A DNA stretch of 64,000 bases from a virus (IMGVR_UViG_3300000101_000005), one strand, 5' to 3'. Positions 1,907 to 59,590 are shown, counted from the first letter of the stretch. Numbers and translations are program-made. The notes: generated from the letters alone by a model not told the origin.

Positions 1907-1912
1907 TAAATA
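1907..1912 (+). promoter_or_regulatory. late-type promoter TAAATA, 5 nt before ATG
   Basis: TAAATA-CAGTA-ATG(1918). Confidence 0.6.
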
Positions 1913-1917
1913 CAGTA

Positions 1918-2145
1918 ATGCACACAGTAACACTACAGTTTAAGGATGACTCAAAGTCATATCAGTATAAAGATGCTATAACGCACACAGCCAGCATACA
2001 CTTACTGCTAAAGGGCATACACACCAGTCAACCCACAGCTAATACGCTTACACTACACGATGACGCACAACTAGTACAAACACTGCTGTTACTCAGCAAC
2101 TCACCGTTGTATGACGCTGTATGCGCTTCTAAGACACCTAAATAG
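1918..2145 (+). CDS. hypothetical protein, 75 aa
   Basis: Start reassigned to ATG 1918 by the TAAATA-N5-ATG pattern. Confidence 0.6.
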   Translation: MHTVTLQFKDDSKSYQYKDAITHTASIHLLLKGIHTSQPTANTLTLHDDAQLVQTLLLLSNSPLYDAVCASKTPK

Positions 2146-2306
2146 TACGCTATAATCGTTTGTATGCTAAATAATACTGTAACAAATGAATATGGATCAC
2201 ATGTAATCAAAATAAGTGCATTGTGCTTCGAAGAGTAAGCTATATAGAAACTAGTGCATGATAGAACATTCAGCTTGTTACACTTTATAAGCGTAGGAGA
2301 TACAAT

Positions 2307-2561
2307 ATGCCCGTAAACGTACATACACATGTATTAGCAATGGCTCGCAACAAGACTACAGGACAAACTGTCAAAGAACAGGATCTTACTGGACATAGGT
2401 TTTTAAACAACCTTAAAGGAAAAGATTGGTGTCAACAGGTAGCTGATAAACTAGCAGCACGTATGGACAATCGTGAACCAGGTGGTTGGGAAAGCATAGT
2501 ACATCCTTACACGCCAGGCGTAAACGTACTGATCAACACACGCACATTCAAAACAAAATAA
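2307..2561 (+). CDS. hypothetical protein, 84 aa
   Basis: AGGAGA RBS upstream. Confidence 0.75.
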   Translation: MPVNVHTHVLAMARNKTTGQTVKEQDLTGHRFLNNLKGKDWCQQVADKLAARMDNREPGGWESIVHPYTPGVNVLINTRTFKTK

Positions 2562-2618
2562 ATTCACACAGGCAGTACACTAGGTGAAACTCTAGTGAAC
2601 AGTCAAGAGGTCAGTGAT

Positions 2619-2716
2619 ATCGCTACCGTTTTGCTGCGCTATCGCTACGCTGCTTCGCAGCTTCTTTAAAAATCGCTAACTGCTTCGCAGCTTTTTGAGC
2701 TTACCGCTTCGCGGCT
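2619..2716. repeat. imperfect tandem repeat with three GC-TTC-GC hairpins
   Basis: ATCGCTA at 2619, 2641, 2672; GCTGC-TTC-GCAGC 2649-2661, CTGC-TTC-GCAG 2680-2690, CCGC-TTC-GCGG 2704-2714. Confidence 0.8.
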
Positions 2717-3000: not shown

Positions 3001-3350
3001 TGTATCACCTGCTGTGCAATAACCATCATGCTCAGCCATATCCATAGTGTATTGAATCCAACCAACGTGGGCAGCAGCTTCTTGTTACTGGCCCATATTA
3101 ACGTTAGGCTTGTAAAAAGTGCTACGAAATAGAACTGCCAAATTTGAATGCCAAATATCAGACCTGGTATGATTATGATGGCCTTGGCTACCCAACTTGC
3201 TGCTTCGATTATATTATAGCTTGTCCAGTATTCTCGAGTGAACCACATAGCATAACAGTCGCGTATGTTCTTCCACCCTACCACTGTGTATATCACGGTT
3301 GTTAGTACAATCCATGCTATAATGGCAAAATAAACTTGTTCGTTTGTCAT
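2997..3350 (-). CDS. multi-pass membrane protein
   Basis: Start ATG 3350 (MTNEQ), preceded by TAAATA-GTAGT; about four hydrophobic helices. Confidence 0.75.
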   Translation of the reverse strand: MTNEQVYFAIIAWIVLTTVIYTVVGWKNIRDCYAMWFTREYWTSYNIIEAASWVAKAIIIIPGLIFGIQIWQFYFVALFTSLTLIWASNKKLLPTLVGFNTLWIWLSMMVIAQQVIQ

Positions 3351-3355
3351 ACTAC

Positions 3356-3361
3356 TATTTA
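3356..3361 (-). promoter_or_regulatory. late-type promoter TAAATA-N5-ATG
   Basis: TAAATA-GTAGT-ATG(3350). Confidence 0.65.
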
Positions 3362-3885: not shown

Positions 3886-4335
3886 CTAGGCTTTCAATTG
3901 ATAGGCATAATTAACTGAATCGTCATTGATGCGCCATTTAGTAGCACCATTGCGTAGATGAAAACGTTCAGCCATCTCAGTAACAGGACTGAGTGTAACT
4001 AGATTTTTAATTTCAGGTTTGTTGCTTGTGATCCAATCAGAAGCATCAAGTATTAGCTGTCTACCACTACCTTTGCTGTAACTCCATATAGTATAGAATA
4101 TAGCAGTGTCAGCATTCTTATCAGTACTACGATCAGTCATGTCGCTTACACTGTTTGGTATTCCTTTAGTGTAACGTACACAACATATGCTGCCCAAGTA
4201 TTCTTTATCATCATACAGGCCAAACATTTCAGCAGTTTTATTGATACGGTAATCAGCGGTTAAATGTGGTCTAACCGGATCGTCTTTAATAATTTGTGAT
4301 ACCCACTCGTCGCAGGTATTGATAACCTTAAGCAT
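3886..4335 (-). CDS. minimal malonyl-CoA decarboxylase-like (GNAT-fold) protein
   Basis: TAIFYTI, LVTLSP, RFHLRNGA and VNYAY motifs occur in the same order as in the MCD catalytic domain. Confidence 0.7.
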   Translation of the reverse strand: MLKVINTCDEWVSQIIKDDPVRPHLTADYRINKTAEMFGLYDDKEYLGSICCVRYTKGIPNSVSDMTDRSTDKNADTAIFYTIWSYSKGSGRQLILDASDWITSNKPEIKNLVTLSPVTEMAERFHLRNGATKWRINDDSVNYAYQLKA

Positions 4336-4386
4336 CGCGCTCTGTTCCTTGTTCTGTTAATACTATTTAATTATTTTAGTATAGGA

Positions 4387-5094
4387 TTATACTAGTTCTG
4401 GTGCTTGTTCTAGGCTAAGTTGTTCATCCTCTAGTTCACGTATTTCTGTACTAAGTTGATCAATCATTCCTAGGTTACGCAGTTGTTTGAACACAATGTT
4501 TTCTACACTATATTCACCTGCTCTTTCAAGTCCTGCTTTGCGCATTTTGGTTAGCTTTTGTTTTGCTAATCTCATCTTGGGCAAATCTTTTGATATCAAA
4601 GATGCTTCTATATCGTGCTGTATGCTATCTTTCTTTGCTTGTACAGCAGCATCATTGATGTTTGGTTTTACTTTCTTAGGTTCAATTAGCCATGTATTTT
4701 TGCTTAGGCTATACACACCAGTTGAATGATGTGGTTCTTTTGCACCCTGTATATAACACTCTACAGGTAAGTTCTTAATACGTATGTTATGTTCTTCTGC
4801 CCACAATGCTTTCTTTGCATTATATAGTTCTCTTTGTTCGTCACTGGGCATGCCGCGAACAATGATATGTAAATCTAAATCACTATACTCTGTCCATGTA
4901 AAATTTGCATTTGAACCTGTTAGTGTATAGTCTACTACATCTAGTTCTACACCTATAAACTCTTGAAACACTTTTGCAATCTCAATTAGTTTTTCTGTTA
5001 TCTCGGATTTAAGTTCGCCACCGTTCCACAACACTGGATTTAACTTCTTGTTAACAGTCATGGATTCTTCGTTGAGTAGTTCTACAATGCGCAT
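4387..5094 (-). CDS. Pol-beta superfamily nucleotidyltransferase
   Basis: TGSNAN...SDLDLHII motif. Confidence 0.75.
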   Translation of the reverse strand: MRIVELLNEESMTVNKKLNPVLWNGGELKSEITEKLIEIAKVFQEFIGVELDVVDYTLTGSNANFTWTEYSDLDLHIIVRGMPSDEQRELYNAKKALWAEEHNIRIKNLPVECYIQGAKEPHHSTGVYSLSKNTWLIEPKKVKPNINDAAVQAKKDSIQHDIEASLISKDLPKMRLAKQKLTKMRKAGLERAGEYSVENIVFKQLRNLGMIDQLSTEIRELEDEQLSLEQAPELV

Positions 5095-5098
5095 ATTA

Positions 5099-5353
5099 CT
5101 ATTTAGCCCACATTAGGTGATATGTAACAAGCACCTTAGGGTCGTAAAAATCTGCAACAAGACGCTTAACACCATTGCCTTTTACTTCTAACATCAGTTG
5201 AACGTCTTCGGGTTTTTGTTCTAGTAACCAAGTGCAATGGTCTTTACCGATTGCATTTTGTACTCTAGGCCAATCAATATCGTATTGTGCGTCTACAGTT
5301 TGATCTGCAGGAACTGACCATTCAAATATATCTACTTTAGTATTCTTCATCAC
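5099..5353 (-). CDS. hypothetical protein
   Basis: ORF overlapping the helicase stop. Confidence 0.65.
   Translation of the reverse strand: MMKNTKVDIFEWSVPADQTVDAQYDIDWPRVQNAIGKDHCTWLLEQKPEDVQLMLEVKGNGVKRLVADFYDPKVLVTYHLMWAK
5100..5105 (-). promoter_or_regulatory. late-type promoter TAAATA-N5-ATG
   Basis: TAAATA-GTAAT-ATG(5094). Confidence 0.7.
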
Positions 5354-8784: not shown

Positions 8785-9791
8785 TACGCAGTCTCCAATT
8801 TATGTTCAAAGTTATTTTTAGCAACGTTCAACTTAATAGAACCTTGCACCGCGGTCTTCATTGCATCAACTAGTACAAACAATTTACCATAGCGTTTGAC
8901 TGCATCAGCAACATCTTTTACATCACTATCCCAGTTAGGAAATGCAACATGCCAATTATGCTCATCAGCTTTGTTAATAAGCTCAACACCTGCACTATCC
9001 TGATCTGGAATAACGATTACTTCTTGACCTAAACTATTAATAATCCTTGCTTGTTGCTCGTGAATATTATTAGTAAGCAATGCAACACCACCAATAGATA
9101 GTGCATCAAACGGTCCTTCAGTTACAAATATATATTTCTGATCTTCCTTTTGTTCGTCAATGTTATAGACAAAGTGAGGGTGATGATCGGAAATATATTT
9201 AGGTCTGCCATCTTTAACTTTCCTAGCAGTTGATCCTACAATACTTCCTTTGTACCAAAATGGGATAATGACTCTATCTCTATATCCTTCAAGCGGTGTC
9301 CAATAAAAGTGTTTGCTAACAGGATCACAATCTCTTTCTAGTAGATACTTAACTACTTCTGCTAGACTGGCTTCCTCTTCCTCGTTGAGATCAGCTTCTA
9401 ACCAATCACGTATCGCTAAAGCACCCTCTGGTAATGTCTTAGGCGTAAACGTTACTGTGCTAGAAACTTCTCTCGGAGTATACTCTGGTGATTCAGCTTT
9501 AAGTGCTTCAAATATCATTTGATTGATATCGTCATCGTTAGCACCTAGCCATCTGCATAAATTTTTAAACTTGTTTGATAAAGGTCTGCCTGGTTCCCAA
9601 CTTGCACTGTACTTACAGTTGAAGCAATTGAATACCACACCTAAATCAAATTTCAAACCACCACGCTTACGTTTGTCCTGAGAGTGACCTCTATGGGAAC
9701 AACACGGAGCATTAAAACTTGTCCAACCTGAAGGACTAGTTTTGGCACGTGAAGGCAAGAGTGTTCGGAATTTATCTAATACCAGAGTCAT
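8784..9791 (-). CDS. gp61: DNA primase (gp61/DnaG-like)
   Basis: N-terminal Zn-binding CC..H..CFNC; TOPRIM TEGPFD and PDQD..G. Confidence 0.88.
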   Translation of the reverse strand: MTLVLDKFRTLLPSRAKTSPSGWTSFNAPCCSHRGHSQDKRKRGGLKFDLGVVFNCFNCKYSASWEPGRPLSNKFKNLCRWLGANDDDINQMIFEALKAESPEYTPREVSSTVTFTPKTLPEGALAIRDWLEADLNEEEEASLAEVVKYLLERDCDPVSKHFYWTPLEGYRDRVIIPFWYKGSIVGSTARKVKDGRPKYISDHHPHFVYNIDEQKEDQKYIFVTEGPFDALSIGGVALLTNNIHEQQARIINSLGQEVIVIPDQDSAGVELINKADEHNWHVAFPNWDSDVKDVADAVKRYGKLFVLVDAMKTAVQGSIKLNVAKNNFEHKLETA

Positions 9792-9797
9792 AGTATT

Positions 9798-9825
9798 AGT
9801 ATAGCATCTTTGCGGGTAATGTCAA
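9798..9825 (-). promoter_or_regulatory. sigma70-type promoter, 6 nt before the primase ATG
   Basis: TTGACA-16 bp-TATACT-AATACT-ATG; extended -10 TG. Confidence 0.7.
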
Positions 9826-9826: not shown

Positions 9827-10732
9827 CTATCTTACTAGAATTTTATCCAAAGATCCTGTGTTTTCTCGAGTTGGACAGTGCTTTACTCTAAACCAATTAT
9901 ACTTACCGGTTTGGTTTTTGAATATATTACCATCTGTGCTTGTGATGTCAAACGTCTGTAAAACAAACCAACTATCTGCACTTGGAGTACCACCGTCTGC
10001 TAAACTGCCTTGTATTTCTACTTTCCCTGTATAGTTTTTGAAATAAAACTGTAAGGTGTGTAAACTGCTTGGAGTTTGCATATTGGGTTTAAGGTCAACT
10101 ATACTACTGTAATGTAATTCATCAAACACATTATTAGAAGTATTAGTTTGGTTATAATTTGGTCTTGGGTTTTGGAACTGTTCTGTATCGTCTGCCATAT
10201 ATGCAAGACTATCCCAGTCAATGTCCTTATTAAACTTATAAACTTCTATAGTATTGTAAGGAGTTCCTAGCACGTCACCCATAATCTCTAAGTTGCCCAT
10301 TGCACCGTAGTGTGGATCAAAGTATAGCGGAGATCTTGAAGTAACTTTATAGTCGGTGGAGTCAACTGTTTGTCTTACTTCTTTAGTAATGCTATAGCTA
10401 TAAAATCCTGGCTCTAGTTCTGTTAGTTCGTCCGCTGTTAGTATAACATACACTCTACCAGTTGTTAAGTCGTCTACTGAGCAGTCTTTACTAAGAACTA
10501 AATCACTATTTTCTTTGTTTATAATATTAAACACAACTGTAGAACCAGTTATGTTGTATTTCTTTTCATCGCTGTTTCTTACCTGTAAGTCGATTCTATT
10601 ATCGACACTACGATAAGCCATCAGCCCTCGATTGTATACCATACGTTTTCTCTCCACTTTCCAAGTACCGTTAACGCCATTATCATAGACGTTGAGTAAA
10701 TTTGGATATAAATATATTGAATGACTTTGCAT
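9827..10732 (-). CDS. hypothetical, probably virion structural protein
   Basis: Start ATG 10732 by TAAATA-TGTAT-ATG; beta-rich sequence. Confidence 0.6.
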   Translation of the reverse strand: MQSHSIYLYPNLLNVYDNGVNGTWKVERKRMVYNRGLMAYRSVDNRIDLQVRNSDEKKYNITGSTVVFNIINKENSDLVLSKDCSVDDLTTGRVYVILTADELTELEPGFYSYSITKEVRQTVDSTDYKVTSRSPLYFDPHYGAMGNLEIMGDVLGTPYNTIEVYKFNKDIDWDSLAYMADDTEQFQNPRPNYNQTNTSNNVFDELHYSSIVDLKPNMQTPSSLHTLQFYFKNYTGKVEIQGSLADGGTPSADSWFVLQTFDITSTDGNIFKNQTGKYNWFRVKHCPTRENTGSLDKILVR

Positions 10733-10737
10733 ATACA

Positions 10738-10743
10738 TATTTA
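10738..10743 (-). promoter_or_regulatory. late-type promoter TAAATA-N5-ATG
   Basis: TAAATA-TGTAT-ATG(10732). Confidence 0.65.
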
Positions 10744-14630: not shown

Positions 14631-14789
14631 CTAGTCCTTGTTAACAATATCTGGTGTAATCATATCTATCGTATTTACTACTGTTTTACCTGCATATATG
14701 GCTGTACTAGCAGTAACGTCCAAAACGGCTACAGTTGTTCCACATGCAGGAAGTAATAGAATTATGGCTACAAATAAAAGTTTAATCAT
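14631..14789 (-). CDS. 52-aa putative lipoprotein
   Basis: MIKLLFVAIILLLPA-C lipobox; absent from ORF track. Confidence 0.6.
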   Translation of the reverse strand: MIKLLFVAIILLLPACGTTVAVLDVTASTAIYAGKTVVNTIDMITPDIVNKD

Positions 14790-14795
14790 ACTTAT

Positions 14796-14824
14796 ATTGT
14801 ACTATCTTATGCAAATAAATGCAA
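14796..14824 (-). promoter_or_regulatory. sigma70-type promoter, 6 nt before ATG
   Basis: TTGCAT-17 bp-TACAAT-ATAAGT-ATG(14789). Confidence 0.6.
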
Positions 14825-23600: not shown

Positions 23601-23606
23601 ACTACT

Positions 23607-31525: not shown

Positions 31526-31530
31526 ACTAG

Positions 31531-37424: not shown

Positions 37425-37429
37425 ATAAG

Positions 37430-39025: not shown

Positions 39026-39030
39026 ACTAG

Positions 39031-39036
39031 TATTTA
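39031..39036 (-). promoter_or_regulatory. late-type promoter TAAATA-N5-ATG
   Basis: TAAATA-CTAGT-ATG(39025). Confidence 0.7.
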
Positions 39037-39039
39037 CTC

Positions 39040-39066
39040 AAAAAAATAGCACCCGAAGGTGCTATT
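39040..39066 (-). terminator. intrinsic terminator with UUCG tetraloop
   Basis: AATAGCACC-TTCG-GGTGCTATT then TTTTT. Confidence 0.9.
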
Positions 39067-40763: not shown

Positions 40764-40768
40764 ATTAG

Positions 40769-40774
40769 TATTTA
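40769..40774 (-). promoter_or_regulatory. late-type promoter TAAATA-N5-ATG
   Basis: TAAATA-CTAAT-ATG(40763). Confidence 0.65.
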
Positions 40775-41263: not shown

Positions 41264-41271
41264 ACTTTTAC

Positions 41272-43196: not shown

Positions 43197-43201
43197 ACTA
43201 T

Positions 43202-43207
43202 TATTTA
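43202..43207 (-). promoter_or_regulatory. late-type promoter TAAATA-N5-ATG
   Basis: TAAATA-ATAGT-ATG(43196). Confidence 0.7.
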
Positions 43208-43212: not shown

Positions 43213-43241
43213 AAAAAAAGCCCGGAAAATAATCCGAGCTT
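43213..43241 (-). terminator. intrinsic terminator after the tail tube gene
   Basis: AAGCTCGGA/TCCGGGCTT stem followed by a T run. Confidence 0.75.
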
Positions 43242-43264
43242 CTTCTATTTTATTTAAAAAGTTA

Positions 43265-47262: not shown

Positions 47263-47383
47263 CTTTTTTATCTCCTGGTAATATTTTCGTATCAGTCTAT
47301 TACGTAAACTTGTTGCAATTGTATTTAGCACTTTATATAAAATTAGCCTGGTTTAACCAGTCATTAAAGGGGTCCAAAAGGTG

Positions 47384-47389
47384 TAAATA
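47384..47389 (+). promoter_or_regulatory. late-type promoter TAAATA-N5-ATG
   Basis: TAAATA-CATGT-ATG(47395). Confidence 0.65.
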
Positions 47390-47394
47390 CATGT

Positions 47395-47730
47395 ATGAGA
47401 CCTCTTTGTAAGTGCGGATTACGGCCACGTGCTGTTAACTATAAGAAAGGTAAGCGTACCTATTACAGAAGCCTATGTGAAGTATGTAATAATCACGGGC
47501 AGTATACAGGTGTACCTAGATGGGCTCGTGCTGGCTATAAACAGAAAGCTTCATGTGATAAATGCGGATTCAAATCACCTCATCCAGAAGTATTTAGAGT
47601 ATTACATTTAGATGGAAATTTAGATAACTGTAGACACAGCAATTTAAAAACTGTTTGTGCTAATTGTATATCTGTGTTATCTAAAGAAGGTATTAAGTGG
47701 AAACAGGGTGACTTAACTGCTGACTACTAG
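47395..47730 (+). CDS. HNH-like zinc-binding endonuclease
   Basis: CxxC pairs; VLHLDGNLDNC...NL..VCANC. Confidence 0.75.
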   Translation: MRPLCKCGLRPRAVNYKKGKRTYYRSLCEVCNNHGQYTGVPRWARAGYKQKASCDKCGFKSPHPEVFRVLHLDGNLDNCRHSNLKTVCANCISVLSKEGIKWKQGDLTADY

Positions 47731-48699: not shown

Positions 48700-49457
48700 T
48701 ATCCTATAACCCAACTATATCCGCTACCACCTGGAACCTGTGTTGTAAGTTCCATTGTTAGTCTTTCTAGATCTGCTGTGCCTTCTGCTTTCATTGAAGG
48801 TCCGTTTAGAGCTGTACCACCTTGTGGGCCTGCAATACTTGCAAATTTTTCTCTTGCTTGTCCTAGCATAACTTTACAGTTAGCTAACGTGTAATCTTTA
48901 ATCCATTGTCCTGCATATACATCTTGTAAAATTGTATAGTCAGGCTTCTCATTATATGCCCAAAGAAGTACTTGTTCTTCTCCTCTTGGACGTTGCATAA
49001 TAATTAACTTTTTACTTTGAGGGTTCCAAGTAAAATTAATAAACGAACCAAACATCTTTCCAACAAGTTCTTGATACTGTGCAAATAACTCGTATGTTGC
49101 AAGTCCGCCCATGTTGGTTGAACTTAACAAATACGTATTAGTATATGCTAAGTTGAATGGTTCAAACACTGTACCACCTGTACCGTTACCTGTTCTACTA
49201 CCTACACTTCTTCTGTATATTTGTCTTACTTGTTGTATCTCATGTGGTAAGGTATAATCGTTTTTATCTTTTTCTAAAGTAAGTGTTATGTAACTTTCTT
49301 CAACTGCATTATCGCTTCGTTGTCTGAAAACACCCAAAGCACGTTTTAAACCTGTTTCGTAGTGAATAGGATCTAGTTCGACATCGATCATTCCGTCGCC
49401 TAGCATTGCTTTGCAATAGTCGAATACTTCTTGTTTTGATGTTTCTATCTGGCTCAT
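48699..49457 (-). CDS. gp13: neck protein gp13-like
   Basis: LG...I.VEL, W..DY..A..K...G.AR.KF, PGG..LNG; start by TAAATA-CTTAT-ATG. Confidence 0.8.
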   Translation of the reverse strand: MSQIETSKQEVFDYCKAMLGDGMIDVELDPIHYETGLKRALGVFRQRSDNAVEESYITLTLEKDKNDYTLPHEIQQVRQIYRRSVGSRTGNGTGGTVFEPFNLAYTNTYLLSSTNMGGLATYELFAQYQELVGKMFGSFINFTWNPQSKKLIIMQRPRGEEQVLLWAYNEKPDYTILQDVYAGQWIKDYTLANCKVMLGQAREKFASIAGPQGGTALNGPSMKAEGTADLERLTMELTTQVPGGSGYSWVIG

Positions 49458-49499
49458 ATAAGTATTTATGCCTTTAGCAACTTTAGGTAAATACTTATA
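49457..49499. promoter_or_regulatory. divergent late promoter pair forming a 12-bp inverted repeat
   Basis: TATAAGTATTTA(49457-49468)...TAAATACTTATA(49488-49499). Confidence 0.7.
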
Positions 49500-49501
49500 C
49501 A

Positions 49502-50881
49502 ATGCCAAGACTCAGTTTATACAGACCCGAAAAGGGGAACGATTACAAATTCCAGGACAAAACCGTCTGGGAGATGTTCCAAGTTGGCGGTACTGATGTG
49601 CTTGTACACAAGTATGTAGGCCCCGGAAATTCACAGGAAAAAACAGCAGCTACACCAACATATAGCACAGATGATCCTACAAACATTCAGGATATGCTAT
49701 TCTTAGAAAACAGAGATCGCAAATATGATCCAGATGTTTATAGATTACGTGGTGTATATAATGTACAAGACATTGACTTTAATCTAAGTCAGTTTGGTTT
49801 ATTCCTACAAAATGATACAGTGTTTGTTACATTCCATATTAATGATACTGTTGAAAAATTAGGCAGAAAGATCATGTCAGGCGATGTTATCGAGTTGCCG
49901 CACTTAGATGATGAACATGCTCTTAATGATTTAAATTATGCATTAAAACGTTTTTATGTAATTGAAGATGTTAATCGTGCAGCAGAAGGATTTTCAAATA
50001 CATGGTATCCTCACTTGTACAGAGCAAAGTGTAAACCATTAGTAGATTCACAAGAATTCAAACAGATTTTAGATGGCATTGCAGATAAAGATGCATTGAA
50101 AGGTACGTGGAACGCAGAGTCAACTTACTTCCCAGGAGATATTGTTATTGCTCCTAATGGTGAGAAGTACCAAGTTATATCAGAAATTAGTGGCGTTGAA
50201 CCACCTAATGCAACTTATTATAAACTTGCAGATACACTCAAAGATATTATGAGTACGTATGAAAAAGAAATGCAAGTTACACAAGCAGTTCTTGATCAAG
50301 CAGAAGCAGATTCGCCACAAGCAGGTTATGACACTAGTAGATTTTATACTATGCAAGTTGATAACCAAGGTAAAACAGAACTTGTTACAGCTGACAGCGA
50401 TGACTTGCTTATACCATCTACAGATGCAGCCGGCAACACATTACTTGATGATAAAGGTAATGCAATCTACATGGCCGTTACTGCTGACACCGCATACAAA
50501 ACACCCGAAGGTAATGCATATACTGGTTACTTAATTGGTGACGGATTACCAGAGAACGGTGCACCATTTACACAAGGTATAGCATTTCCTCTTAATCCTA
50601 TGGAAGGACAATTCCACTTACGTACTGATTACAAGCCTACACGTTTGTTTAGATTCGACGGAGTACGTTGGAGAAAAACTGAAGATGATGTAAGAATGAC
50701 TAGAAGTAATTTAGGACCAAGTCAAGTAGGTGTAGGTAAAGATTTTGCAGGACATGATGCTGCAATAAGTAAAGGTAAGGATTCGTTTATTAACAATACG
50801 GTAGTTAACAACATTGGTGGTAAACAAGTTTCAGAAAAACAGAGCTTGAGTAAAGCACTTAGACCGAAGGCAGACGATTAA
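49502..50881 (+). CDS. gp14: neck/head-closure protein gp14-like
   Basis: IQDMLFLENRDRKYD, LSQFGLFL, GDVIELP. Confidence 0.7.
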   Translation: MPRLSLYRPEKGNDYKFQDKTVWEMFQVGGTDVLVHKYVGPGNSQEKTAATPTYSTDDPTNIQDMLFLENRDRKYDPDVYRLRGVYNVQDIDFNLSQFGLFLQNDTVFVTFHINDTVEKLGRKIMSGDVIELPHLDDEHALNDLNYALKRFYVIEDVNRAAEGFSNTWYPHLYRAKCKPLVDSQEFKQILDGIADKDALKGTWNAESTYFPGDIVIAPNGEKYQVISEISGVEPPNATYYKLADTLKDIMSTYEKEMQVTQAVLDQAEADSPQAGYDTSRFYTMQVDNQGKTELVTADSDDLLIPSTDAAGNTLLDDKGNAIYMAVTADTAYKTPEGNAYTGYLIGDGLPENGAPFTQGIAFPLNPMEGQFHLRTDYKPTRLFRFDGVRWRKTEDDVRMTRSNLGPSQVGVGKDFAGHDAAISKGKDSFINNTVVNNIGGKQVSEKQSLSKALRPKADD

Positions 50882-52377
50882 TGGATTTCTTTTACGATGG
50901 ACAGATAAGAAGATATGTAACACAGTTTATGAGAGCATTCATTGGTTTTAAATATGAAGCTGGTGATAAAACTCAACAAACTATACCTGTTATGTATGGT
51001 GATCTTACAAGACAGGTTGCTTCAATTATTAGAGAAAATTCTGAGAACAAACTACCTACTGTTCCTAGAATGGCTTGTTATATTTCAGGACTACAAATTG
51101 ATAGAGATAGATTAGCTGATCCGTCATTCATTAGTAAAATGAGTGTTAGAGAAAGAGACTTTTCATTTGATGCAGCTACAGGTGAGCCTAACTATACAGG
51201 TGCTCAAGGAAATGCATACACTGTTGAAAGACTTATGCCTACTCCTTTTATATTAACTATGAAAGCAGATCTTTGGACTTCTAATACAGACCAAAAATTA
51301 CAAATACTAGAACAAATTTTAGTGTTGTTTAATCCATCTATGTCTATTCAAACAACAGACAACTATATTGATTGGACTAGTTTAAGCGTGATTAATTTAG
51401 AATCAACTCAGTTTACATCACGTGCAGTACCTACAGGAGTTGACGATGATATCGATATTTGTACATTAGAGTTTACAATGCCTATATACATTTCACCGCC
51501 AACTAAAGTTAAAAAACTTGGTGTTGTTAGAAGTGTTATTGCAAATATATTTACAGAAACAGGTAATGTAGCAAATCTAAACGACTTAGTGTATGATGCT
51601 ACAACAGCAGAATCTACTCAATATATAAATGCACGTTATGGTGTGTTATTATTTAAATCAAACAATAATCAAACATACGACTATGATTTAACTATTGTAG
51701 ACGACGATGAAGCAGTAAATGCTTTAGGACTTAATGCTAAAGAACAAAAAAGTAAAACAACAGAAATTGATTGGAATGGAGTATTAGATAGACTAGGCGG
51801 ATTCAAAGCAGGCGCAAAAATATATTTCAGACAACCTACAGGATACGAAATGGTCGGAACATATGCTGTTAATCCTGCTAATTCTAAAGTACTATTAATA
51901 ACATTTGACCAAGATACTATTCCTACTAACACAACTATTGCATCAACTGTAAACGGTGTTGCTGCTCGTGCTACTGTTGACGCTATTATTGATCCTTACA
52001 AATTTAATCCTGTTGAGAAATGGGGAAGTTTATCAGCAATACCACTAGGTACAAGATATCTAGTTCTTGATAATATTAACGATAGTGATAATGTTGGACA
52101 AAGTTATAGAGAAACTCCATACAATGAAGCGTATGATGGTCCTGATGCATGGAAAGGAACAACAGGCGAAGATCCTATTATTGTAGCCAATGCTATCATT
52201 GAATGGAATGGCATAAACTGGATTACATTAGCAGATCCAAACACACTAGCAAATCCAACATATTTCCAAAACTTAAAAACAGGTATCCAATATAAATGGA
52301 CAGGCACCGAATGGCTCAAGTCGTTTGAAGGTGAATACTCGCCAGGTTATTGGAGAATTGACCCTAACCCAGCATAA
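50881..52377 (+). CDS. gp15: tail sheath stabilizer/terminator gp15-like with C-terminal extension
   Basis: FFYDGQIRRY..QF, IP..YG, PRMA, QKLQILEQIL..FNP. Confidence 0.8.
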   Translation: MDFFYDGQIRRYVTQFMRAFIGFKYEAGDKTQQTIPVMYGDLTRQVASIIRENSENKLPTVPRMACYISGLQIDRDRLADPSFISKMSVRERDFSFDAATGEPNYTGAQGNAYTVERLMPTPFILTMKADLWTSNTDQKLQILEQILVLFNPSMSIQTTDNYIDWTSLSVINLESTQFTSRAVPTGVDDDIDICTLEFTMPIYISPPTKVKKLGVVRSVIANIFTETGNVANLNDLVYDATTAESTQYINARYGVLLFKSNNNQTYDYDLTIVDDDEAVNALGLNAKEQKSKTTEIDWNGVLDRLGGFKAGAKIYFRQPTGYEMVGTYAVNPANSKVLLITFDQDTIPTNTTIASTVNGVAARATVDAIIDPYKFNPVEKWGSLSAIPLGTRYLVLDNINDSDNVGQSYRETPYNEAYDGPDAWKGTTGEDPIIVANAIIEWNGINWITLADPNTLANPTYFQNLKTGIQYKWTGTEWLKSFEGEYSPGYWRIDPNPA

Positions 52378-52385
52378 GTATTTTA

Positions 52386-52775
52386 ATGCAAAAGAGAGCC
52401 GGAATATTATACCTATCATTAGACACTCAACGAATACTACTAATTCTTGAGAATGAAAAATGGACTGTTCCTACGTTTTCAAAAAAGACTTCTGTAATTA
52501 ATGACAGCTTAGAATTACAAGAAGACTTTTCTAAAGGTAAAATTGTTCCTATTGAATTATATTTGAGTCTAGATAAAGGATTTGAATACGGAACCTATAT
52601 TTGTTTAGTAAAGAAAGAATTCTTAACTACAAAAGCAAATACAATTAGTTGGTGTGATATGAATTTCTTACCCAAGAACTTGCACACAGGTCTTCGAAAC
52701 ACATTAAATAATAATCTAATAAGAACAAAAATAGAAACTATATTGGAGTTAAACAAAGATGTTAATACTATCTGA
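52386..52775 (+). CDS. degenerate Nudix-fold-like protein
   Basis: RAGIL...RILLIL...W.VP; Nudix box absent; TAAGTA-N5-ATG upstream. Confidence 0.4.
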   Translation: MQKRAGILYLSLDTQRILLILENEKWTVPTFSKKTSVINDSLELQEDFSKGKIVPIELYLSLDKGFEYGTYICLVKKEFLTTKANTISWCDMNFLPKNLHTGLRNTLNNNLIRTKIETILELNKDVNTI

Positions 52776-53022: not shown

Positions 53023-54647
53023 ATTGTAGCAAAACTCTTAATAGTAATTGATCCTACCATAGCACTGTGGTTAGTACATTGATATCTGTAACCACCTGAT
53101 ATTCCTGCAGGAACTTTCCAATACAATATTCCACCAGTCTTTGAATTTGCACTAGCACCTGTAGTTACTGTTCCAGTATCTGTTACGTGTATTAGTCCTG
53201 TGTTATATGCTGCACTTGTAGCATCTTGAATTTGGAATGGATGACTTGCTGAAACACCTTGTAAGTTAAATGCAATTGTTGTTCCACTAATTGCATAAAT
53301 TGTAGGATTGTTTCCACCGTACTGATCAAATGTGTAAGCAGAAGTTCCGCTGGCTCCAACAACCAATTGTGTAATTGCTGGTAAGTAAACATCTGAAACT
53401 TTTAATCCTGCTGATGTTACATCACCTAAGTCGTCAAAGTCAGTTGCTCCGCCACCTGATCCTGTAATAGTAACACTGTCTCCACTTGCATTTGTTGTAA
53501 GTGTAATGTTTGTACCGGCTGTAAGTGTTAGTGTATCAGTTGTAGTATCTGCTACAACATCACTTTGACCAGCAACAGCAATAGTGCTAAATGCATTTTG
53601 GTTTGCATCTCCGCCACCGCCTGATGCTGAAGGTGCCCAGTTAGCACCGTTCCATTTAAGTACTTGTCCGCTTGTTGGTGCAGCAGTTGTTGTGTCAACA
53701 TCACTTAGTGCATCAATTGATAATGTTCCAATTCCTGTAATAAATCCTGCACCGTTAGTTAACTGATTGTTATTTGTAGGTACAGTTGGTCTACCTGTTA
53801 AAGAAGTATATGCTCCGTCAAAGGCATCTGTAATACCAAAGCCTGTAATGGTTGTTGGCTTACTTGTAATGTCATTCCATGCAACACCTGTAATGTAACT
53901 TGTAAGGTCTGGTGGAGTAAAAGTAAACACACCAGTTGTGTTATCGTATGCAATTGCTCCGTTACCTGATGCTGTTGCAGCAGAACCAACGCTTAATGCT
54001 GTAAGTTGTAATAAACTAGGAGTGTTGCTTAGATTATTGTAATTTAAAAAGTATGAACTATCAAAACCGTCTAGGGTATCTGCATCAGTACCAGCACCAC
54101 CTGTTGTACTATCTACACCCGGTACCCAATTACTGCCGTTCCATTTTAAAACTTGTCCTGCAGTTGGTGCTGTAGTTGCTGTGTCTACATCTGATAAGAA
54201 GTCAATGCTAAATGCAGTCATGTCTAATGTTATTTTGTCTAATGCTGCATCACCAACTGATTGAATGTTTACTCCGCCAGCAATAGTAAGTGTATCTGTT
54301 GAAGCATCTGCAACAACGTTTGCACCTGTGTCAGTTGAAATAGTTGAGAATATATTACCACTTGCACCGCCGCCTGACGATGTTAAGGTAACTGTATCTG
54401 TACTAGCACTTGTAGTGATAGTCATTCCAGATCCAGCAACTAAGTTTAGTGTGTCTGCTCCACTATCTGCTGAAACGCTGTCTTGCCCTGAAACTGCTAT
54501 AGTAGCAAATGATAGGCTTGAACCACCTCCGCCACCGCCTCCACCAGAGATAACGATATCCCAAGTCGTACCGTTCCATTGCCATGTAACGCCACCGCTT
54601 GTATATTGGTCTCCTACTAAAGGACTGTTTGGAAATGCTAGTGCCAT
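53019..54647 (-). CDS. fibre-like virion protein with internal repeats
   Basis: Three FxTI...DTLxxxAG repeats, two LSDVD...GQVLKWNG repeats, C-terminal YQCTNHSAMVG; TAAATA at 54667-54672. Confidence 0.7.
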   Translation of the reverse strand: MALAFPNSPLVGDQYTSGGVTWQWNGTTWDIVISGGGGGGGGSSLSFATIAVSGQDSVSADSGADTLNLVAGSGMTITTSASTDTVTLTSSGGGASGNIFSTISTDTGANVVADASTDTLTIAGGVNIQSVGDAALDKITLDMTAFSIDFLSDVDTATTAPTAGQVLKWNGSNWVPGVDSTTGGAGTDADTLDGFDSSYFLNYNNLSNTPSLLQLTALSVGSAATASGNGAIAYDNTTGVFTFTPPDLTSYITGVAWNDITSKPTTITGFGITDAFDGAYTSLTGRPTVPTNNNQLTNGAGFITGIGTLSIDALSDVDTTTAAPTSGQVLKWNGANWAPSASGGGGDANQNAFSTIAVAGQSDVVADTTTDTLTLTAGTNITLTTNASGDSVTITGSGGGATDFDDLGDVTSAGLKVSDVYLPAITQLVVGASGTSAYTFDQYGGNNPTIYAISGTTIAFNLQGVSASHPFQIQDATSAAYNTGLIHVTDTGTVTTGASANSKTGGILYWKVPAGISGGYRYQCTNHSAMVGSITIKSFATI

Positions 54648-54669
54648 AATATTTGTTCCTCTACTGTAT

Positions 54670-57189
54670 TTATACTATACGCAAATTAGTTATAGTAACG
54701 CCACCGCTTGTTGCAAATGGCTGATCTGAGTTATATTTGTTATATAAAATCTTACCTGCTGACCCCATAATGCTAGTAGTATATGCATTATAATCAGTAG
54801 ATGAGCTTGTTGTATACATTGTTGCTGGTGAGTTTCCTTCTACCTTTTGTTTAAGTTGTGCAGGTGTTAATGTAGGATCTACTTGTAAGTTTAATGCTCC
54901 TACTCCACATACTTGCGGACTTGCCATACTTGTGCCGCTAATAGATTGCTGGCCCCAACTACCGTCTAATTTATATGCTGCTGGACCGCCAATTTCTGAT
55001 GTGTTTGAACATGCACTAATAATATTTGTTCCAGGTGCCCATACAGTTACAGCAGGGCCTTTCATGCTGTCTGGCTTTGTTACATCTTGATTGTTAAGAA
55101 TTCTACTATCAATATTGCCTACGTTAAATGCTCCTGTTGCATATGGCGAAGGCGGTCTATGATAATTGTATGTTCCGGCAGTAAATGTAACAGTATTATT
55201 ATAGTCTGCTCCTGCCGCAACATCAACTTTATAATAATCATTACCTGCTGCAATACAAACATGTATACCATCATTAATCATATCTGCAACTTCAGCATCA
55301 ACGTATGCTACTTGGACAGGAATTTTCCATCTCGTTCCTACGTATGGTACAACACCTACGTTTGCCCATACCTGTTGAATAGTAGTATAGTCAGTTCCGT
55401 AAGTCCATGCTGCTCCTCTGTAGTTTCCAGATACTGGAGTTTCTGTATTAGCAATGTTAGTTCCGTATCCCCAACTCATGTTAACAATAGTTGGTCTTTT
55501 AACTTTTGTAATCGGATCAATAGGTTTTTTGTTGTGCCAGCTTCTAATACAATCAAATGAATTTACAATACTAATACCATTATCAGGATCTGCTGTGCCT
55601 TCAAGCCCTCCTAATTTTTGTGAATATATTCTTGCACCTTTTGCCCAACCAAAGGTTTTACCTGCAACTGTTCCTGTGCAGTGTGTTCCGTGCCCGTGCA
55701 AGTCTGTATAAAAAGTTGTATCTTGTGTTCCTGTTACAGTACTTTCTTCGTACCAGTCAATTTGCTGTAGTCTTGAACTTGATGTATTTGAAACATATCC
55801 TGACGATCCTGCTACAAATGGATTTCCTATATCGCCGTCTGGGAAAATACTTTGTAAAACATCAATGTCAATTTTTTCAATTACATCTTTAATATGTGTG
55901 TTAAACAATCCATAACCTAACGGATTTAGAGCTTGTACACCTGCTGGAGTACGTGCAGAGTCAGCCCATTCAGGAGCTAGACTGCCACCGTCCCATAAAC
56001 TTGTATATTCAAACATTGCAAAGTTTAGTAGATATAAGTATTCTTTTACTGCTACAGGAAATGTATCGGCATCTGTTTTCCAGTTAGGTGCACCACTGCT
56101 TGCCGCATCCCATATATTGTTATCTTCTGCTTCTTTCATTGCAAGGAACATTGGACCTGTTGCCCAGTCTGAATCGAAGCTAGGAAACATTTTTAATTCT
56201 CTTGCTTCGAGTCCATACTGATGTATTGTATGAAATACATGTTCTATTACTTCTGTTATATCGTTGTTGCCAGTACCTGATCTTACATACCAAACCATAT
56301 CGTCAACAGCATGGCTATCTAAAAATCCTTGATAACCGCTATAACTAGCAATGCCACCGTCAGTTAACCAATTAGGTGAGTAATTAGCACCAGTGCCGAA
56401 ACCAACTCGTTGTGCTGCTGGAGTTCCTGCATGCCACGTACCTGTATCGCCTCTTAGGTTTTCGATAAGTTTTTTTTGCTTTTCAGTGTTTGTTGTTTTA
56501 CGTGGAGTTAGTAATAGCTCAACTGTTCTTGCAACTTTTTTTGCAAACTCGCTATGCACAGTTGTTGCTCCGCCTACTGCTCCTGCAACTACAATTTTAA
56601 GTCCGTGTACATTAATACTTCTATCAAACACGGCGCCATTGGTACTATCTGTAACTAATGGACCTGCAGCATAATGATCTGGTGCTACAAAATTTAATGT
56701 TTCCCATTCAGGGTGTCCACCTTCAATTCCGCTATCTTGAATAACAACATCAACCCCTGTACCATCTAGTGGATACAAATAAGGATCTGTTATTGATGTA
56801 ATTGTCTGTTCGCCAGACGGTGTACTACCGTTGCCATAATTTTCTGTTAAACTTTGACACCGTTTAAGTGCCCAGTTGTCAAGATTACCAGCACTACCAG
56901 AACCTCTAAAAAAGTTTCCTGCTTGTGAAGCTCGCAAACTTATTTGAACATCGTCACGTTCTTCAATAGGAATTTCAACAGCTAAAACTCTATCATCGTT
57001 TCTTAAATCTTCTGCTTCTGCGTCTGATAACATGAAATGAGTTGATACTCTAGACGCTTCACGAGGATTTGCAATTGTAACTTTTCTTGTTGGAATTGTA
57101 TCTGAACCTAGTGCTGAAACCATCTCTGCATCGAGTGCAGCAAGATCAACTCCGGGGTTTACTGTAACAATATATTCTCTGTCAGCCAT
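54670..57189 (-). CDS. S8 subtilisin-like serine protease with a large insertion
   Basis: VVIQDSG (Asp), HGHGTHCTG (His), AAGND, GTSMASP (Ser). Confidence 0.92.
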   Translation of the reverse strand: MADREYIVTVNPGVDLAALDAEMVSALGSDTIPTRKVTIANPREASRVSTHFMLSDAEAEDLRNDDRVLAVEIPIEERDDVQISLRASQAGNFFRGSGSAGNLDNWALKRCQSLTENYGNGSTPSGEQTITSITDPYLYPLDGTGVDVVIQDSGIEGGHPEWETLNFVAPDHYAAGPLVTDSTNGAVFDRSINVHGLKIVVAGAVGGATTVHSEFAKKVARTVELLLTPRKTTNTEKQKKLIENLRGDTGTWHAGTPAAQRVGFGTGANYSPNWLTDGGIASYSGYQGFLDSHAVDDMVWYVRSGTGNNDITEVIEHVFHTIHQYGLEARELKMFPSFDSDWATGPMFLAMKEAEDNNIWDAASSGAPNWKTDADTFPVAVKEYLYLLNFAMFEYTSLWDGGSLAPEWADSARTPAGVQALNPLGYGLFNTHIKDVIEKIDIDVLQSIFPDGDIGNPFVAGSSGYVSNTSSSRLQQIDWYEESTVTGTQDTTFYTDLHGHGTHCTGTVAGKTFGWAKGARIYSQKLGGLEGTADPDNGISIVNSFDCIRSWHNKKPIDPITKVKRPTIVNMSWGYGTNIANTETPVSGNYRGAAWTYGTDYTTIQQVWANVGVVPYVGTRWKIPVQVAYVDAEVADMINDGIHVCIAAGNDYYKVDVAAGADYNNTVTFTAGTYNYHRPPSPYATGAFNVGNIDSRILNNQDVTKPDSMKGPAVTVWAPGTNIISACSNTSEIGGPAAYKLDGSWGQQSISGTSMASPQVCGVGALNLQVDPTLTPAQLKQKVEGNSPATMYTTSSSTDYNAYTTSIMGSAGKILYNKYNSDQPFATSGGVTITNLRIV

Positions 57190-57198
57190 GCTTTATAC

Positions 57199-58926
57199 CT
57201 ATACCAAGCTCGCCCAAGCACCATTTTCGTATACCTGTGCTTTGTTCAACGTAGTGTCATATACCATATCACCGTTTGCAGGTGTTAGTGCATTTTTCTG
57301 TGTTGTTGTAAAGCTAGGCAGTCTAAATGGAGCACCGGTAACTCTTACACCGTCTTGTGTATCTAAAACTAGTGTTGAACTACTTGTAATTTGAGGTGTG
57401 CCAGTATCGGTCTGTGCAATAGTTTTTACTGATAATGTATCATTTACTGTTAAATTCTGTGTTGTATGATTAGTTGTTGTAAAGTCTGTTACTGAAAATT
57501 GTGCTGCTGTAAGCAAATTGTTTACAGTTAAATCGTTTTCAACTGTTAGATCACTTTGCATTAACACACCTGGAGTAAAGTTTATTCCTGAACTATCACT
57601 AGTGTCAATGTTCGAACCTGTAAATACAAAGTTACCAACTTCAGCTGCTGTTGCACCACCTGTTGCTGTACCACTTGACACATACGCTGAAAATCCTGTA
57701 CCGTTTACAGTTGTTGATAAAGCACTGTCAGAGTATAAAGCAAACTCTAATGTGCTAGTAACGTTTGCATAATATTCATTACCATTAAGCTGTGTCATTC
57801 CGTTGACACCTGCAATTGTTACAGGTTGTCCTTCGTAAAAACCGTGTGCAGAACTTGTACTAATTACAACTGGATTTGCCTGTGTTGCTGCGGCAATAGT
57901 TGCAGTTACAGAACCACTACCAACTGCATCTGATGCAGGTGACCATTGCGCACCGTCCCATTTAAGTACTTGGTTAGTACTTGGTGAACTTCCTGATACA
58001 TCTGAAAGTGTTGTAATTGATGTTGCTGTTAAATTTTGTAATGCACTATCTGCTTTAGTACCTTGAGCTGATGTTGCAGCATCTGTAATACCATAACCAG
58101 CAAGTGTTGTTGCATTGTTTGCTAGTTTTGTCCATGCACCTGCATGAGCAAAGTACCCAGCACCTGTAGCATGAACATGTGCAAACATTCCATGATACGT
58201 TGTAGCACTAGGTAAGTCTCCTTCTGTTGCAAATACATTTGCAAAGTAAACTTTGCCTGTTGTAGTAATATCATTACTACCCATAGCTAAAGTGCCACTA
58301 ACTGTTAAACCGTTTAATACCGGAGGTGCATATGTAAACACACCTGTAGTATTATCGTAACTAACTGCGCCATCGCCTGCCGCAGTACCTTCTGCACCAA
58401 CTGATATACTTGACCTAACTGCTGATTGATCTAATCCAGCTGCTGGTGCTGCTGCATTAATCCATGCTGCACCATTCCATTTTAATACTTGATCAGTACT
58501 CGGAGTTGTAATAGTTACGTTTGTTAAATCTTGTAAGTTATCTGGGATAGCAGGATAACCTAATACCGGTTGTACCCATTGATTACTATCACCATCGTTA
58601 ATATAGACATACAGTGTACCATTACTGCTATTAAACCAAATTGTACCTGCTGTTGGTGTGCTAGGTGCTGTTTGGCTTACTTCAATACTGCCACCACCAC
58701 CACCTACTCCAGCCGCTGTTGCTTTTGCAGCAAATATAGAGTTAGTAACGTTGGTTAAATCGCCTCTTGCTAATGGTAAACCGCCTACAACTATACTGTC
58801 AAACAGTCTAATCGTATTGTTGTCCTTATCATAGAATATTTCTCCACGTGCGCCGGACTTTCTATCCAGAAATTCTGCATCTCTTGGTACTACGCGAAGG
58901 TTATTAATGATAGGTAAATTGGCCAT
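57199..58926 (-). CDS. fibre-like virion protein
   Basis: Two QVLKW(N/D)G repeats, YDNTTGVFT, ATQANP...HG...GMTQLNG domain; TAAATA at 58956-58961. Confidence 0.7.
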   Translation of the reverse strand: MANLPIINNLRVVPRDAEFLDRKSGARGEIFYDKDNNTIRLFDSIVVGGLPLARGDLTNVTNSIFAAKATAAGVGGGGGSIEVSQTAPSTPTAGTIWFNSSNGTLYVYINDGDSNQWVQPVLGYPAIPDNLQDLTNVTITTPSTDQVLKWNGAAWINAAAPAAGLDQSAVRSSISVGAEGTAAGDGAVSYDNTTGVFTYAPPVLNGLTVSGTLAMGSNDITTTGKVYFANVFATEGDLPSATTYHGMFAHVHATGAGYFAHAGAWTKLANNATTLAGYGITDAATSAQGTKADSALQNLTATSITTLSDVSGSSPSTNQVLKWDGAQWSPASDAVGSGSVTATIAAATQANPVVISTSSAHGFYEGQPVTIAGVNGMTQLNGNEYYANVTSTLEFALYSDSALSTTVNGTGFSAYVSSGTATGGATAAEVGNFVFTGSNIDTSDSSGINFTPGVLMQSDLTVENDLTVNNLLTAAQFSVTDFTTTNHTTQNLTVNDTLSVKTIAQTDTGTPQITSSSTLVLDTQDGVRVTGAPFRLPSFTTTQKNALTPANGDMVYDTTLNKAQVYENGAWASLV

Positions 58927-59000
58927 ATTATAAGTTCATCCCAGTTGTTGTAAAGTATTTATCTGCTTTCAGACTATTCATGTCATTAATAATCTGGCCA

Positions 59001-59006
59001 TAAATA
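59001..59006 (+). promoter_or_regulatory. late-type promoter TAAATA-N5-ATG
   Basis: TAAATA-GTAAT-ATG(59012). Confidence 0.7.
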
Positions 59007-59011
59007 GTAAT

Positions 59012-59590
59012 ATGATTATAGAGAACGATATTGCAACATGGACCGGCGTTATGAGACCCGAAGAATGTGCAGAACTTATTGAATACTACGAAAAATTGAA
59101 CGACTTGCACTTAACTGCTAGTCGACAAACACTAGGAGATAATTCAGCACATAATAAAGCAGACAATGCTGCATTTCTTCTTGAACAACCTGCATTGAAT
59201 ATGTCAACAGACAATCCTACTATACATACTTTTATGAATAGATTTATTGATTGCTGGAAGCAATATACTGCACATTATAGTGTGTTAGGCGAGTGCGGCG
59301 ATCACAGAGTTTACTTTATGAAACTTCAAAAAACCCTTCCAGGAGAAGGATATCATACTTGGCATTTTGAATCAGATACAAAAGAAAGGTCAGGTAGAAT
59401 TGCAGCGTGGGGAATGTATCTTAATACAGTTGACGAAGGCGGAGAAACAGAATGGTTGTATCAGAAGAAGCGTATTGCTGCTACTGAAGGAACCTTAGTT
59501 GTTTGGCCTGCAAGTTACACGCATACTCACAGAGGCAATCCGCCATTGAGTGGTGAAAAATATCTTTTAACAGGCTGGGTTGAGTTTTAA
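59012..59590 (+). CDS. 2OG-Fe(II) oxygenase
   Basis: GYHTWHFE, YLNTVDEGGETE, WPASYTHTHRG, KYLLTGW. Confidence 0.88.
   Translation: MIIENDIATWTGVMRPEECAELIEYYEKLNDLHLTASRQTLGDNSAHNKADNAAFLLEQPALNMSTDNPTIHTFMNRFIDCWKQYTAHYSVLGECGDHRVYFMKLQKTLPGEGYHTWHFESDTKERSGRIAAWGMYLNTVDEGGETEWLYQKKRIAATEGTLVVWPASYTHTHRGNPPLSGEKYLLTGWVEF

Follow-up and report, generated by a model that had tools for sequence, protein, structure and literature searches.

A T4-late-type box five nucleotides before the start codon: candidate leaderless late genes in an uncultured marine jumbo phage

T4-type late transcription is a textbook system, and to our knowledge its messages have always been described as leadered and dependent on a Shine-Dalgarno (SD) sequence. 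A stretch of 64,000 nucleotides (nt) from the uncultured marine virus IMGVR_UViG_3300000101_000005 (the window; coordinates are counted from its first letter) raises a question about that arrangement: why does about one gene in six start exactly 5 nt after TAAATA, a hexamer that resembles the T4 late promoter? The pattern is genuine, far from random, and maintained across a large clade. Probably, T4-type late promoters are here fused to start codons, giving leaderless or near-leaderless late messages.

A box at a fixed distance from the start codon

The two strands of the window together contain 56 copies of TAAATA. In 12 cases an ATG follows after exactly five nucleotides (N5), and every other offset from 0 to 30 accounts for only 0-4 cases (binomial P = 8e-10). 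Dinucleotide-preserving shuffles (n=100) yielded 2.05 ± 1.57 N5 sites with a maximum of 6; none reached 12. All 12 ATGs open reading frames (ORFs), of 75-793 amino acids (aa). The N5 rule put forward in the first-pass annotation therefore stands against shuffled controls, and no other spacing is enriched. Moreover, the other 14 arrangements of the same letters show no comparable N5 peak. Shuffles, other offsets, and hexamer permutations together rule out chance or base composition as its origin.

The G+C content of the window is 37%, and megablast found no nucleotide match to known phages. Its proteins assign it to the T4 superfamily (a T4-type large terminase, TerL; a gp15-like sheath stabiliser; a gp32-like single-strand binding protein; a 1,118-aa sheath; and tube, adaptor, and fibre-type proteins). 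TerL is closest to that of the Pseudomonas jumbo phage PA5oct (52% aa identity) and is 42-51% identical to those of Sinorhizobium phage Phosso, Agrobacterium phage Atu_ph07, and the Rak2/GAP32 group. About 400 environmental relatives in IMG/VR have TerL proteins 76-98% identical; the longest are 130-155 kb and rated ~40% complete. An identical tube protein is present on a 310-kb ENA contig, which together with the relatives points to a jumbo myovirus of roughly 300-350 kb. Judged by its proteins, the phage is a distant T4-superfamily jumbo myovirus.

Two of the 130-155-kb relatives, G002 and G004, were compared with the window at their full fetched length. The peak recurs in both: 14 of 125 boxes lie at N5 in G002 (background 0-6; P 3e-7), as do 18 of 121 in G004 (background 0-6; P 2e-12). 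In all three sequences TAAATA is the rarest of its 15 letter arrangements, with 56 occurrences versus 62-132 for the others in the window, 125 versus 200-416 in G002, and 121 versus 135-277 in G004. This scarcity is consistent with selection against stray late promoters.

The first-pass annotation listed 14 sites, four on the + strand (1918, 47395, 52386, and 59012) and ten on the - strand, and every one is where it was reported to be. The late boxes of the window, with what was found in orthologs, are as follows (ortholog counts are of distinct upstream sequences; N4, N7, and N8 denote other spacings).

1907..1920, +: TAAATA-N5-ATG of a 75-aa ORF (1918-2145); a unit start, 190 nt past the previous + gene. 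It has A at position -1, against the T rule described below.
3348..3361, -: TAAATA-N5-ATG of a 117-aa ORF (2997-3350), divergent from a tRNA-Arg promoter. The G004 ortholog keeps the box at N4.
5092..5105, -: TAAATA-N5-ATG of a 235-aa nucleotidyltransferase-domain protein (4387-5094); a tight junction, with the upstream ORF's stop overlapping the box. N4 in the G004 ortholog.
10730..10743, -: TAAATA-N5-ATG of a 301-aa virion-protein-like gene (9827-10732). The G004 ortholog is leadered, with the box 23 nt upstream.
31523..31536, -: TAAATA-N5-ATG of a cytidylyltransferase / mannose-6-P isomerase-like gene (ATG 31525), the first of a glycan operon. N5 in 16/17 orthologs, with 13 different spacers.
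37422..37435, -: TAAATA-N5-ATG of a 793-aa virion structural protein (35043-37424), immediately past the stop codon of terL. N5 in 28/38 orthologs, N7 in 10/38.
39023..39036, -: TAAATA-N5-ATG of terL (37436-39025). N5 in 26/35 orthologs, N4 in 9/35, with 18 spacers and, at position -1, 34 T and 1 C.
40761..40774, -: TAAATA-N5-ATG of a 193-aa virion-protein-like gene (40182-40763); the upstream gene stops at the box's TAA. N5 in 25/27 orthologs, down to 42% aa identity.
41261..41274, -: TAAGTA-N5-ATG of a 163-aa terS-like gene (40772-41263); TAA is the stop of an upstream head-closure gene. TAAGTA at N4/N5 in 35/40 orthologs.
43194..43207, -: TAAATA-N5-ATG of a 371-aa tail-tube-like gene (42081-43196). 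N5 in 21/25 orthologs, N4 in 4/25.
47384..47397, +: TAAATA-N5-ATG of a 111-aa HNH-like gene (47395-47730), divergent from the sheath gene. N5 in 28/30 orthologs, with 23 spacers.
49455..49468, -: TAAATA-N5-ATG of a 252-aa head-tail adaptor-like gene (48699-49457). N5 in 7/7 orthologs.
49488..49504, +: TAAATA-N8-ATG of a 459-aa virion protein (49502-50881), with a predicted leader of ~3 nt. Orthologs have the box at N5, N7, or N8.
52375..52388, +: TAAGTA-N5-ATG, doubtful, of a 129-aa ORF (ATG 52386); the gp15-like gene ends on its TAA. Neither of the two orthologs found keeps the box.
59001..59014, +: TAAATA-N5-ATG of a 2OG-Fe(II) oxygenase (59012-59590), the first gene of an oxygenase/halogenase operon and divergent from the fibre-like gene at 58926.

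The 12 TAAATA sites stand. The two TAAGTA sites part company: that at 41263 is accepted because it is conserved, and that at 52386 is rejected for lack of conservation and is probably a chance occurrence. As a class, TAAGTA-N5-ATG is at background level (2/51 in the window), so TAAGTA was not retained as a general variant of the box. In some relatives, TAAGTA does replace TAAATA at the terL and 47395 positions.

Across eight ortholog groups, comprising 219 distinct upstream sequences with N-terminal identity down to 42%, the box lies at N4 or N5 in 200 (91%) and at N7 or N8 in 12, with 5-23 different spacers in each group. The rule also moves several gene starts, as the first-pass annotation had argued, and the orthologs support the changes: 37439 to 37424, 10738 to 10732, 49508 to 49457, 3377 to 3350, and 1825 to 1918.

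Probable promoter identity of the box

The T4 late promoter is TATAAATA at -13 to -6, without a -35 element (PMC1524935; PMC2988020). Several features argue that the box of this phage is its counterpart. A gp55-like sigma factor, which the first-pass annotation had proposed to look for, is encoded in all five large relatives whose TerL proteins are 79-87% identical (phrog_12791, E ~1e-80; phrog_234, E ~1e-24). Boxes are concentrated in non-coding DNA, 13-fold: 22 of the 56 lie within the non-coding 5% of the window and point at genes. These genes include terL, the terS-like, tube-like, and adaptor-like genes, and virion structural genes, as well as the first genes of the glycan and oxygenase/halogenase operons. 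For CBB and GAP32, which are related phages, ATAAATA was put forward earlier as the late promoter (PMC5259590).

The surroundings of the box were examined at 36 N5 sites from the window and the two relatives; TAAATA was the search motif, so the core itself was preset. Position -12 is A in 20/36, and position -13 is not T, G being commonest. Nothing is conserved at -35, a position occupied at two sites by terminator stems:

39037..39066, -: intrinsic terminator before the terL box, with a 9-bp stem, UUCG loop, and T-run; it abuts the box.
43213..43248, -: intrinsic terminator before the 43196 box, a long hairpin of A-tract, GC stem, and T-tract, 5 nt from the box.

Both had been reported in the first-pass annotation, and both fold well (-15.0 kcal/mol, z -5.8, for terL; -21.6 kcal/mol, z -6.7, for 43196). 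Both stems covary among relatives (GCACC/GGTGC, GGCTC/GAGCC, and GGGCC/GGCCC at terL), and the 43196 hairpin is conserved in them. The two terminators end 3-5 nt short of the box; directly before it as they are, they leave no place for another promoter or leader. The A-tract of the tube-like gene's terminator pairs with its T-tract to form a 16-bp hairpin (43208-43250, -), which could terminate transcription in both directions.

The same box also stands farther from the start codon at five genes of the window:

47262..47327, -: TAAATA, 59-nt leader, AGGAG SD; sheath gene.
54645..54672, -: TATAAATA, 19-nt leader, GAGG SD; 542-aa fibre-connector-like gene.
58924..58961, -: TAAATA, 29-nt leader; 575-aa fibre-like gene.
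35006..35036, -: TAAATA, 22-nt leader, GGAG SD; 74-aa gene.
4333..4369, -: TAAATA, 28-nt leader, AAGGA SD; 149-aa gene.

The leaders are 19-59 nt long, and four of the five have a clear SD. Because the box works both at 5 nt and at 20-60 nt, and an SD accompanies it only in the latter case, it behaves as a promoter and not as a ribosome-binding site. For the motif, the best reading is a T4-type late promoter; we infer this identity from the pattern, and the evidence above supports it. These five genes also bear on the idea, in the first-pass annotation, of a phage-wide leaderless programme: the sheath gene (47262), the fibre-type genes (54647 and 58926), and the genes at 35008 and 4335 all combine box and leader, so the programme is not phage-wide.

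One further box lies in an unusual place, at 34530-34547 (-), within the spacer of the sigma70 promoter (TTGACG...TATAAT) of the gp32-like gene and 66 nt before its ATG. The sequence suggests that this gene may have both early and late promoters.

Predicted leaderless messages and competing accounts

Since the T4 late box spans -13 to -6 (PMC1524935), the hexamer falls at -11 to -6 and N5 sets the A of the ATG, six nucleotides past the last A of the box, at the predicted +1. The sequence around the start codon agrees with this placement. Position -1 is a pyrimidine in 200/200 of the orthologous sequences with the box at N4 or N5 (171 T, 29 C); within the window it is T at 12 of the 14 late sites, and at three of three sigma70-type sites described below. 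Among the other genes of the window, -1 is a pyrimidine in only 23/62, and A is commonest (P 0.002). Bacterial RNA polymerase prefers to start at a pyrimidine(-1)/purine(+1) step, and a -1 pyrimidine followed by the A of ATG fits a start at that A.

Genes with the box at N4 or N5 start with ATG without exception (40/40), as expected for leaderless initiation, versus 81 ATG and 14 GTG or TTG at strong-SD genes (P 0.010). The first-pass annotation had most sites lacking an SD, and the search bears this out more fully: none of the 14 has an SD of at least 4 nt at a spacing of 3-10, and two have purine runs at a spacing of 11-12. A -10 box at a fixed short distance from starts is an accepted computational mark of leaderless transcription (PMC6028130; PMC12340547). 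The corresponding GeneMarkS-2 group C signature, a fixed short -10 distance, appears as the sharp N5 peak of the window, G002, G004, and the cultured phage HTVC008M, discussed below.

Together, these results suggest a specific model. TAAATA (consensus g-A-TAAATA) would be the -10-like box of the phage's late promoters, read by host RNA polymerase with a phage gp55-type sigma and requiring no -35 element. In about two thirds of the window's late transcription units the start codon is 5 nt past the box (4 nt in some relatives), where T4-type late transcription begins; the transcript would then start 0-3 nt from the A of the AUG. With no room left for an SD, ribosomes would bind directly to the 5'-terminal AUG. 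A box that needs nothing upstream allows terminator, promoter, and start codon to fit in ~35 bp, as at terL and the tube-like gene, and internal late promoters could overlap the preceding gene's stop codon.

Several observations weigh against this model. No gp55 was found in the 64-kb window, and the clade's gp55-like protein, ~280 aa long, matches phrog_234 over positions 34-137 only. Searches of the five relatives for gp33 (phrog_254) and gp45 (phrog_223) gave no match, but these genomes are only ~40% complete and a control search was also matchless; the Rak2-like phages are reported to have a gp55-like sigma and no detectable gp33 or gp45 homologs (PMC5259590). The position of the start site is extrapolated from T4, whose gp55 is distantly related. 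Sites in orthologs do not count as independent observations. An SD is missing from about half of the window's genes; SD-independent internal initiation evidently works in the host, and the lack of an SD has no specificity. At five of the 14 sites, genes meet in a tight junction (gap <=11 nt), where coupled translation from a polycistronic message could do just as well. Finally, the predicted 5' ends of messages show only marginally less structure than the starts of other genes (P 0.06-0.09), a trend too weak to keep as a supporting signature.

In a rival account, the box is a late promoter but the proteins come mainly from longer transcripts, read-through or polycistronic, by SD-independent or coupled initiation; AUG-proximal transcripts would then be scarce or translated poorly, and compaction of the genome, not a mode of translation, would lie behind the N5 spacing. 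The tight junctions and the SD-less genes favour this account, as does the use of the box's TAA as the upstream stop at 40763, 41263, and 52386. However, nine sites are unit starts, which follow strong terminators or long gaps or lie between divergent genes. Compaction alone, moreover, leaves the invariant -1 pyrimidine and the ATG-only starts unexplained, and does not account for a spacing held at 4-5 nt instead of any short value. On this balance longer transcripts are an unlikely, though not negligible, main source of the proteins.

Might the motif act on RNA instead? As UAAAUA it could signal translation in place of an SD, or be bound by a translational regulator of the phage: it sits exactly where an SD usually does, 5 nt before the AUG, and UAA(G) is able to pair with the terminal 3-4 nt of 16S rRNA (TAAGGAG-type SDs occur in the window). 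Such pairing of 3-4 A/U-rich bases is very weak, however, and a signal of this kind should not also be found 19-59 nt before SD-bearing late genes or, in cultured relatives, ahead of 23-30-nt leaders. The box also follows terminators, where a new promoter is needed, and matches the T4 late box in a gp55-encoding lineage; a role in the RNA is therefore very unlikely. Still harder to credit is an RNA-processing site, at which an endonuclease cut just before the AUG would yield leaderless messages post-transcriptionally. AU-rich single-stranded sites are typical RNase E targets, and the end product would look identical. Yet nothing in the data requires processing, which leaves unexplained the match to a gp55-type box, the depletion of the hexamer on both strands, and its presence after terminators. 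Late promoters fused to start codons remain the preferred reading.

A bolder proposal concerns translation. The first-pass annotation suggested that leaderless messages could profit if SD-dependent initiation were shut off. In its full form, the phage would disable such initiation late, and ribosomes would pass to 5'-AUG messages; the means would be, for example, a RegB-like nuclease cutting GGAG, an altered balance of initiation factors, or a changed 16S 3' end. Genes with SD leaders, such as those for sheath and fibres, would then be timed or dosed differently. We regard this switch as quite improbable. The gp32, sheath, and fibre genes keep SD leaders, and no shut-off device was found; nor were genes for bS21 or IF3 found in the fragments of the five relatives (~40% complete).

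Leaderless geometry is perhaps not confined to late promoters. As the first-pass annotation described, three sigma70-type promoters lie 6 nt before an ATG (9791, 14789, and 23600), and two of them keep this layout in a relative:

9789..9825, -: TTGACA-16-TATACT-N6-ATG of a Toprim (primase-like) gene (8784-9791). One ortholog (82% aa identity) keeps the -35, the -10, and N6, with a different spacer.
14787..14824, -: TTGCAT-17-TACAAT-N6-ATG of a 52-aa ORF.
23598..23635, -: TTGATC-17-TATAAT-N6-ATG of a 395-aa gene (22413-23600). One ortholog (52% aa identity) keeps TTGACT...TATAAT-N6-ATG.

Some sigma70-type promoters, that of the primase-like gene among them, would thus use an equivalent geometry, in which case the host ribosome would translate leaderless messages without late phage functions. 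The presence of a primase-like gene suggests that such messages are translated before late functions appear. We did not retain sigma70-N6 as a distinct class: there is no clear histogram peak after TTGACA-like/TATAAT-like pairs, and three cases are too few for statistics.

Known systems and neighbouring features

The layout is not a new kind of system. It combines two known things, gp55-type late promoters and leaderless phage transcripts. With T4 this phage shares the core box, the absence of a -35 element, the position before virion genes, and a gp55-like sigma in its lineage. T4 late transcription uses the gp55 sigma, the gp33 co-activator, and the gp45 sliding clamp (PMC1524935; PMC2988020). 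In this phage, by contrast, the T at -13 is not conserved, the gp55-like protein (known from the relatives) is ~100 aa longer, and gp33 and gp45 were not detected in the ~40%-complete relatives. The distances differ as well: in T4 the ATG mostly follows the box by 21-29 nt, with a leader and SD, no N4/N5 gene starts, and no N5 peak, whereas here the modal distance is 5 nt.

The closest cultured phages by TerL (42-52% aa identity) are the Rak2-like and related jumbo phages CBB, GAP32, PA5oct, and Atu_ph07. They place the same box before structural genes but, unlike this phage, follow it with leaders of ~20-35 nt and an SD. Orthologs of the 37424 gene in PA5oct, GAP32, and Atu_ph07, for example, have the box and a 23-30-nt leader, with the SD GAAGGAG in GAP32 and AGGAG in Atu_ph07. 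GAP32 has its ATGs 28-35 nt after the box and no N4/N5 gene starts; PA5oct has at most about two. The PA5oct candidates are TAAATA-N5-ATG starts at 144985 (+) and 180252 (-) of NC_071039, opening ORFs of 289 and 123 aa, and RNA-seq exists for PA5oct. The PA5oct preprint reported sigma70-like promoters only.

The cyanophages Syn9 and S-PM2 show no N5 peak (3 and 5 matches, versus 3 in each control). HTVC008M, a cultured T4-like phage of Pelagibacter (SAR11), does: 14 of its 186 boxes are at N5, against a background of ~3. Annotated baseplate, tape-measure-like, head-closure, and DNA-end-protector genes begin at these N5 ATGs, and the phage encodes a canonical gp55 (E 3.5e-66). It differs from the present phage in its 147-kb genome and its membership of another T4-like family, the Kyanoviridae. 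No description of the HTVC008M layout was found in the searchable literature, nor any paper describing leaderless T4-type late genes.

Leaderless phage messages are established elsewhere. Most middle and late transcripts of the Thermus phages phiYS40 and Lalka27a are leaderless, as shown experimentally (bioRxiv 10.64898/2026.04.20.719267; PMC3594737). That lineage is unrelated, however, its box is TAGGGT, and its host phylum uses leaderless mRNAs routinely; moreover, phiYS40 is reported to shift host IF2/IF3 levels, and nothing comparable is known for the present phage. Leaderless genes of the Actinobacteria and Deinococcus-Thermus, and lambda cI from PRM, share a fixed short -10 distance, the lack of an SD, and dependence on AUG (PMC6028130; PMC12340547; PMC10491246). 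They use a housekeeping sigma with TANNNT at 6-8 nt, whereas here a phage late sigma box stands at 5 nt. Other large phages do not follow suit: phiKZ has no leaderless transcripts (PMC8244752), and AR9 has untranslated regions of 26-491 nt (PMC5312081).

From the sequences at hand, fusion of the late promoter to the start codon appears to characterise HTVC008M and a large, abundant group of T4-superfamily phages, uncultured and of marine and fresh waters. If so, ocean phages would rely on leaderless translation as a major mode of expression, beyond the phyla in which it is known, and the packing of terminator, promoter, and start codon into ~35 bp would be explained. The rule (box, 4-5 nt, ATG, and a -1 pyrimidine) would correct gene starts and predict late genes in metagenomic phage genomes. 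Because HTVC008M is cultured, the idea can be tested in culture.

A few neighbouring features deserve mention. A consensus sigma70 promoter of its own, TTGACA-17-TATAAT (-10 box at 3394; region 3370-3489, +), precedes the tRNA-Arg(GCG) gene at 3413-3489; this promoter and the late box of the 3350 gene stand back to back. In G002, a 1,137-aa ORF at position 98283 (+) has a TAAATA-N5-ATG start; it is similar in size to the window's sheath gene, which has the 59-nt leader with AGGAG. The ~600 nt at 10744-11354 hold no convincing ORF, only a weak 124-aa one on the + strand (10767-11141); a TAAATA box at 11324-11329 (-) points into this stretch, which could encode a late non-coding RNA or small ORFs. 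Finally, a purine-rich element (AAAGGGG, 5-6 nt, AAAAGGTG) lies at 47350-47383 (+), directly upstream of the 47395 late box, in the gap between this gene and the divergent sheath gene. Nearly all of the 30 distinct orthologous sequences retain it between variable flanks, and it may be a regulator site.

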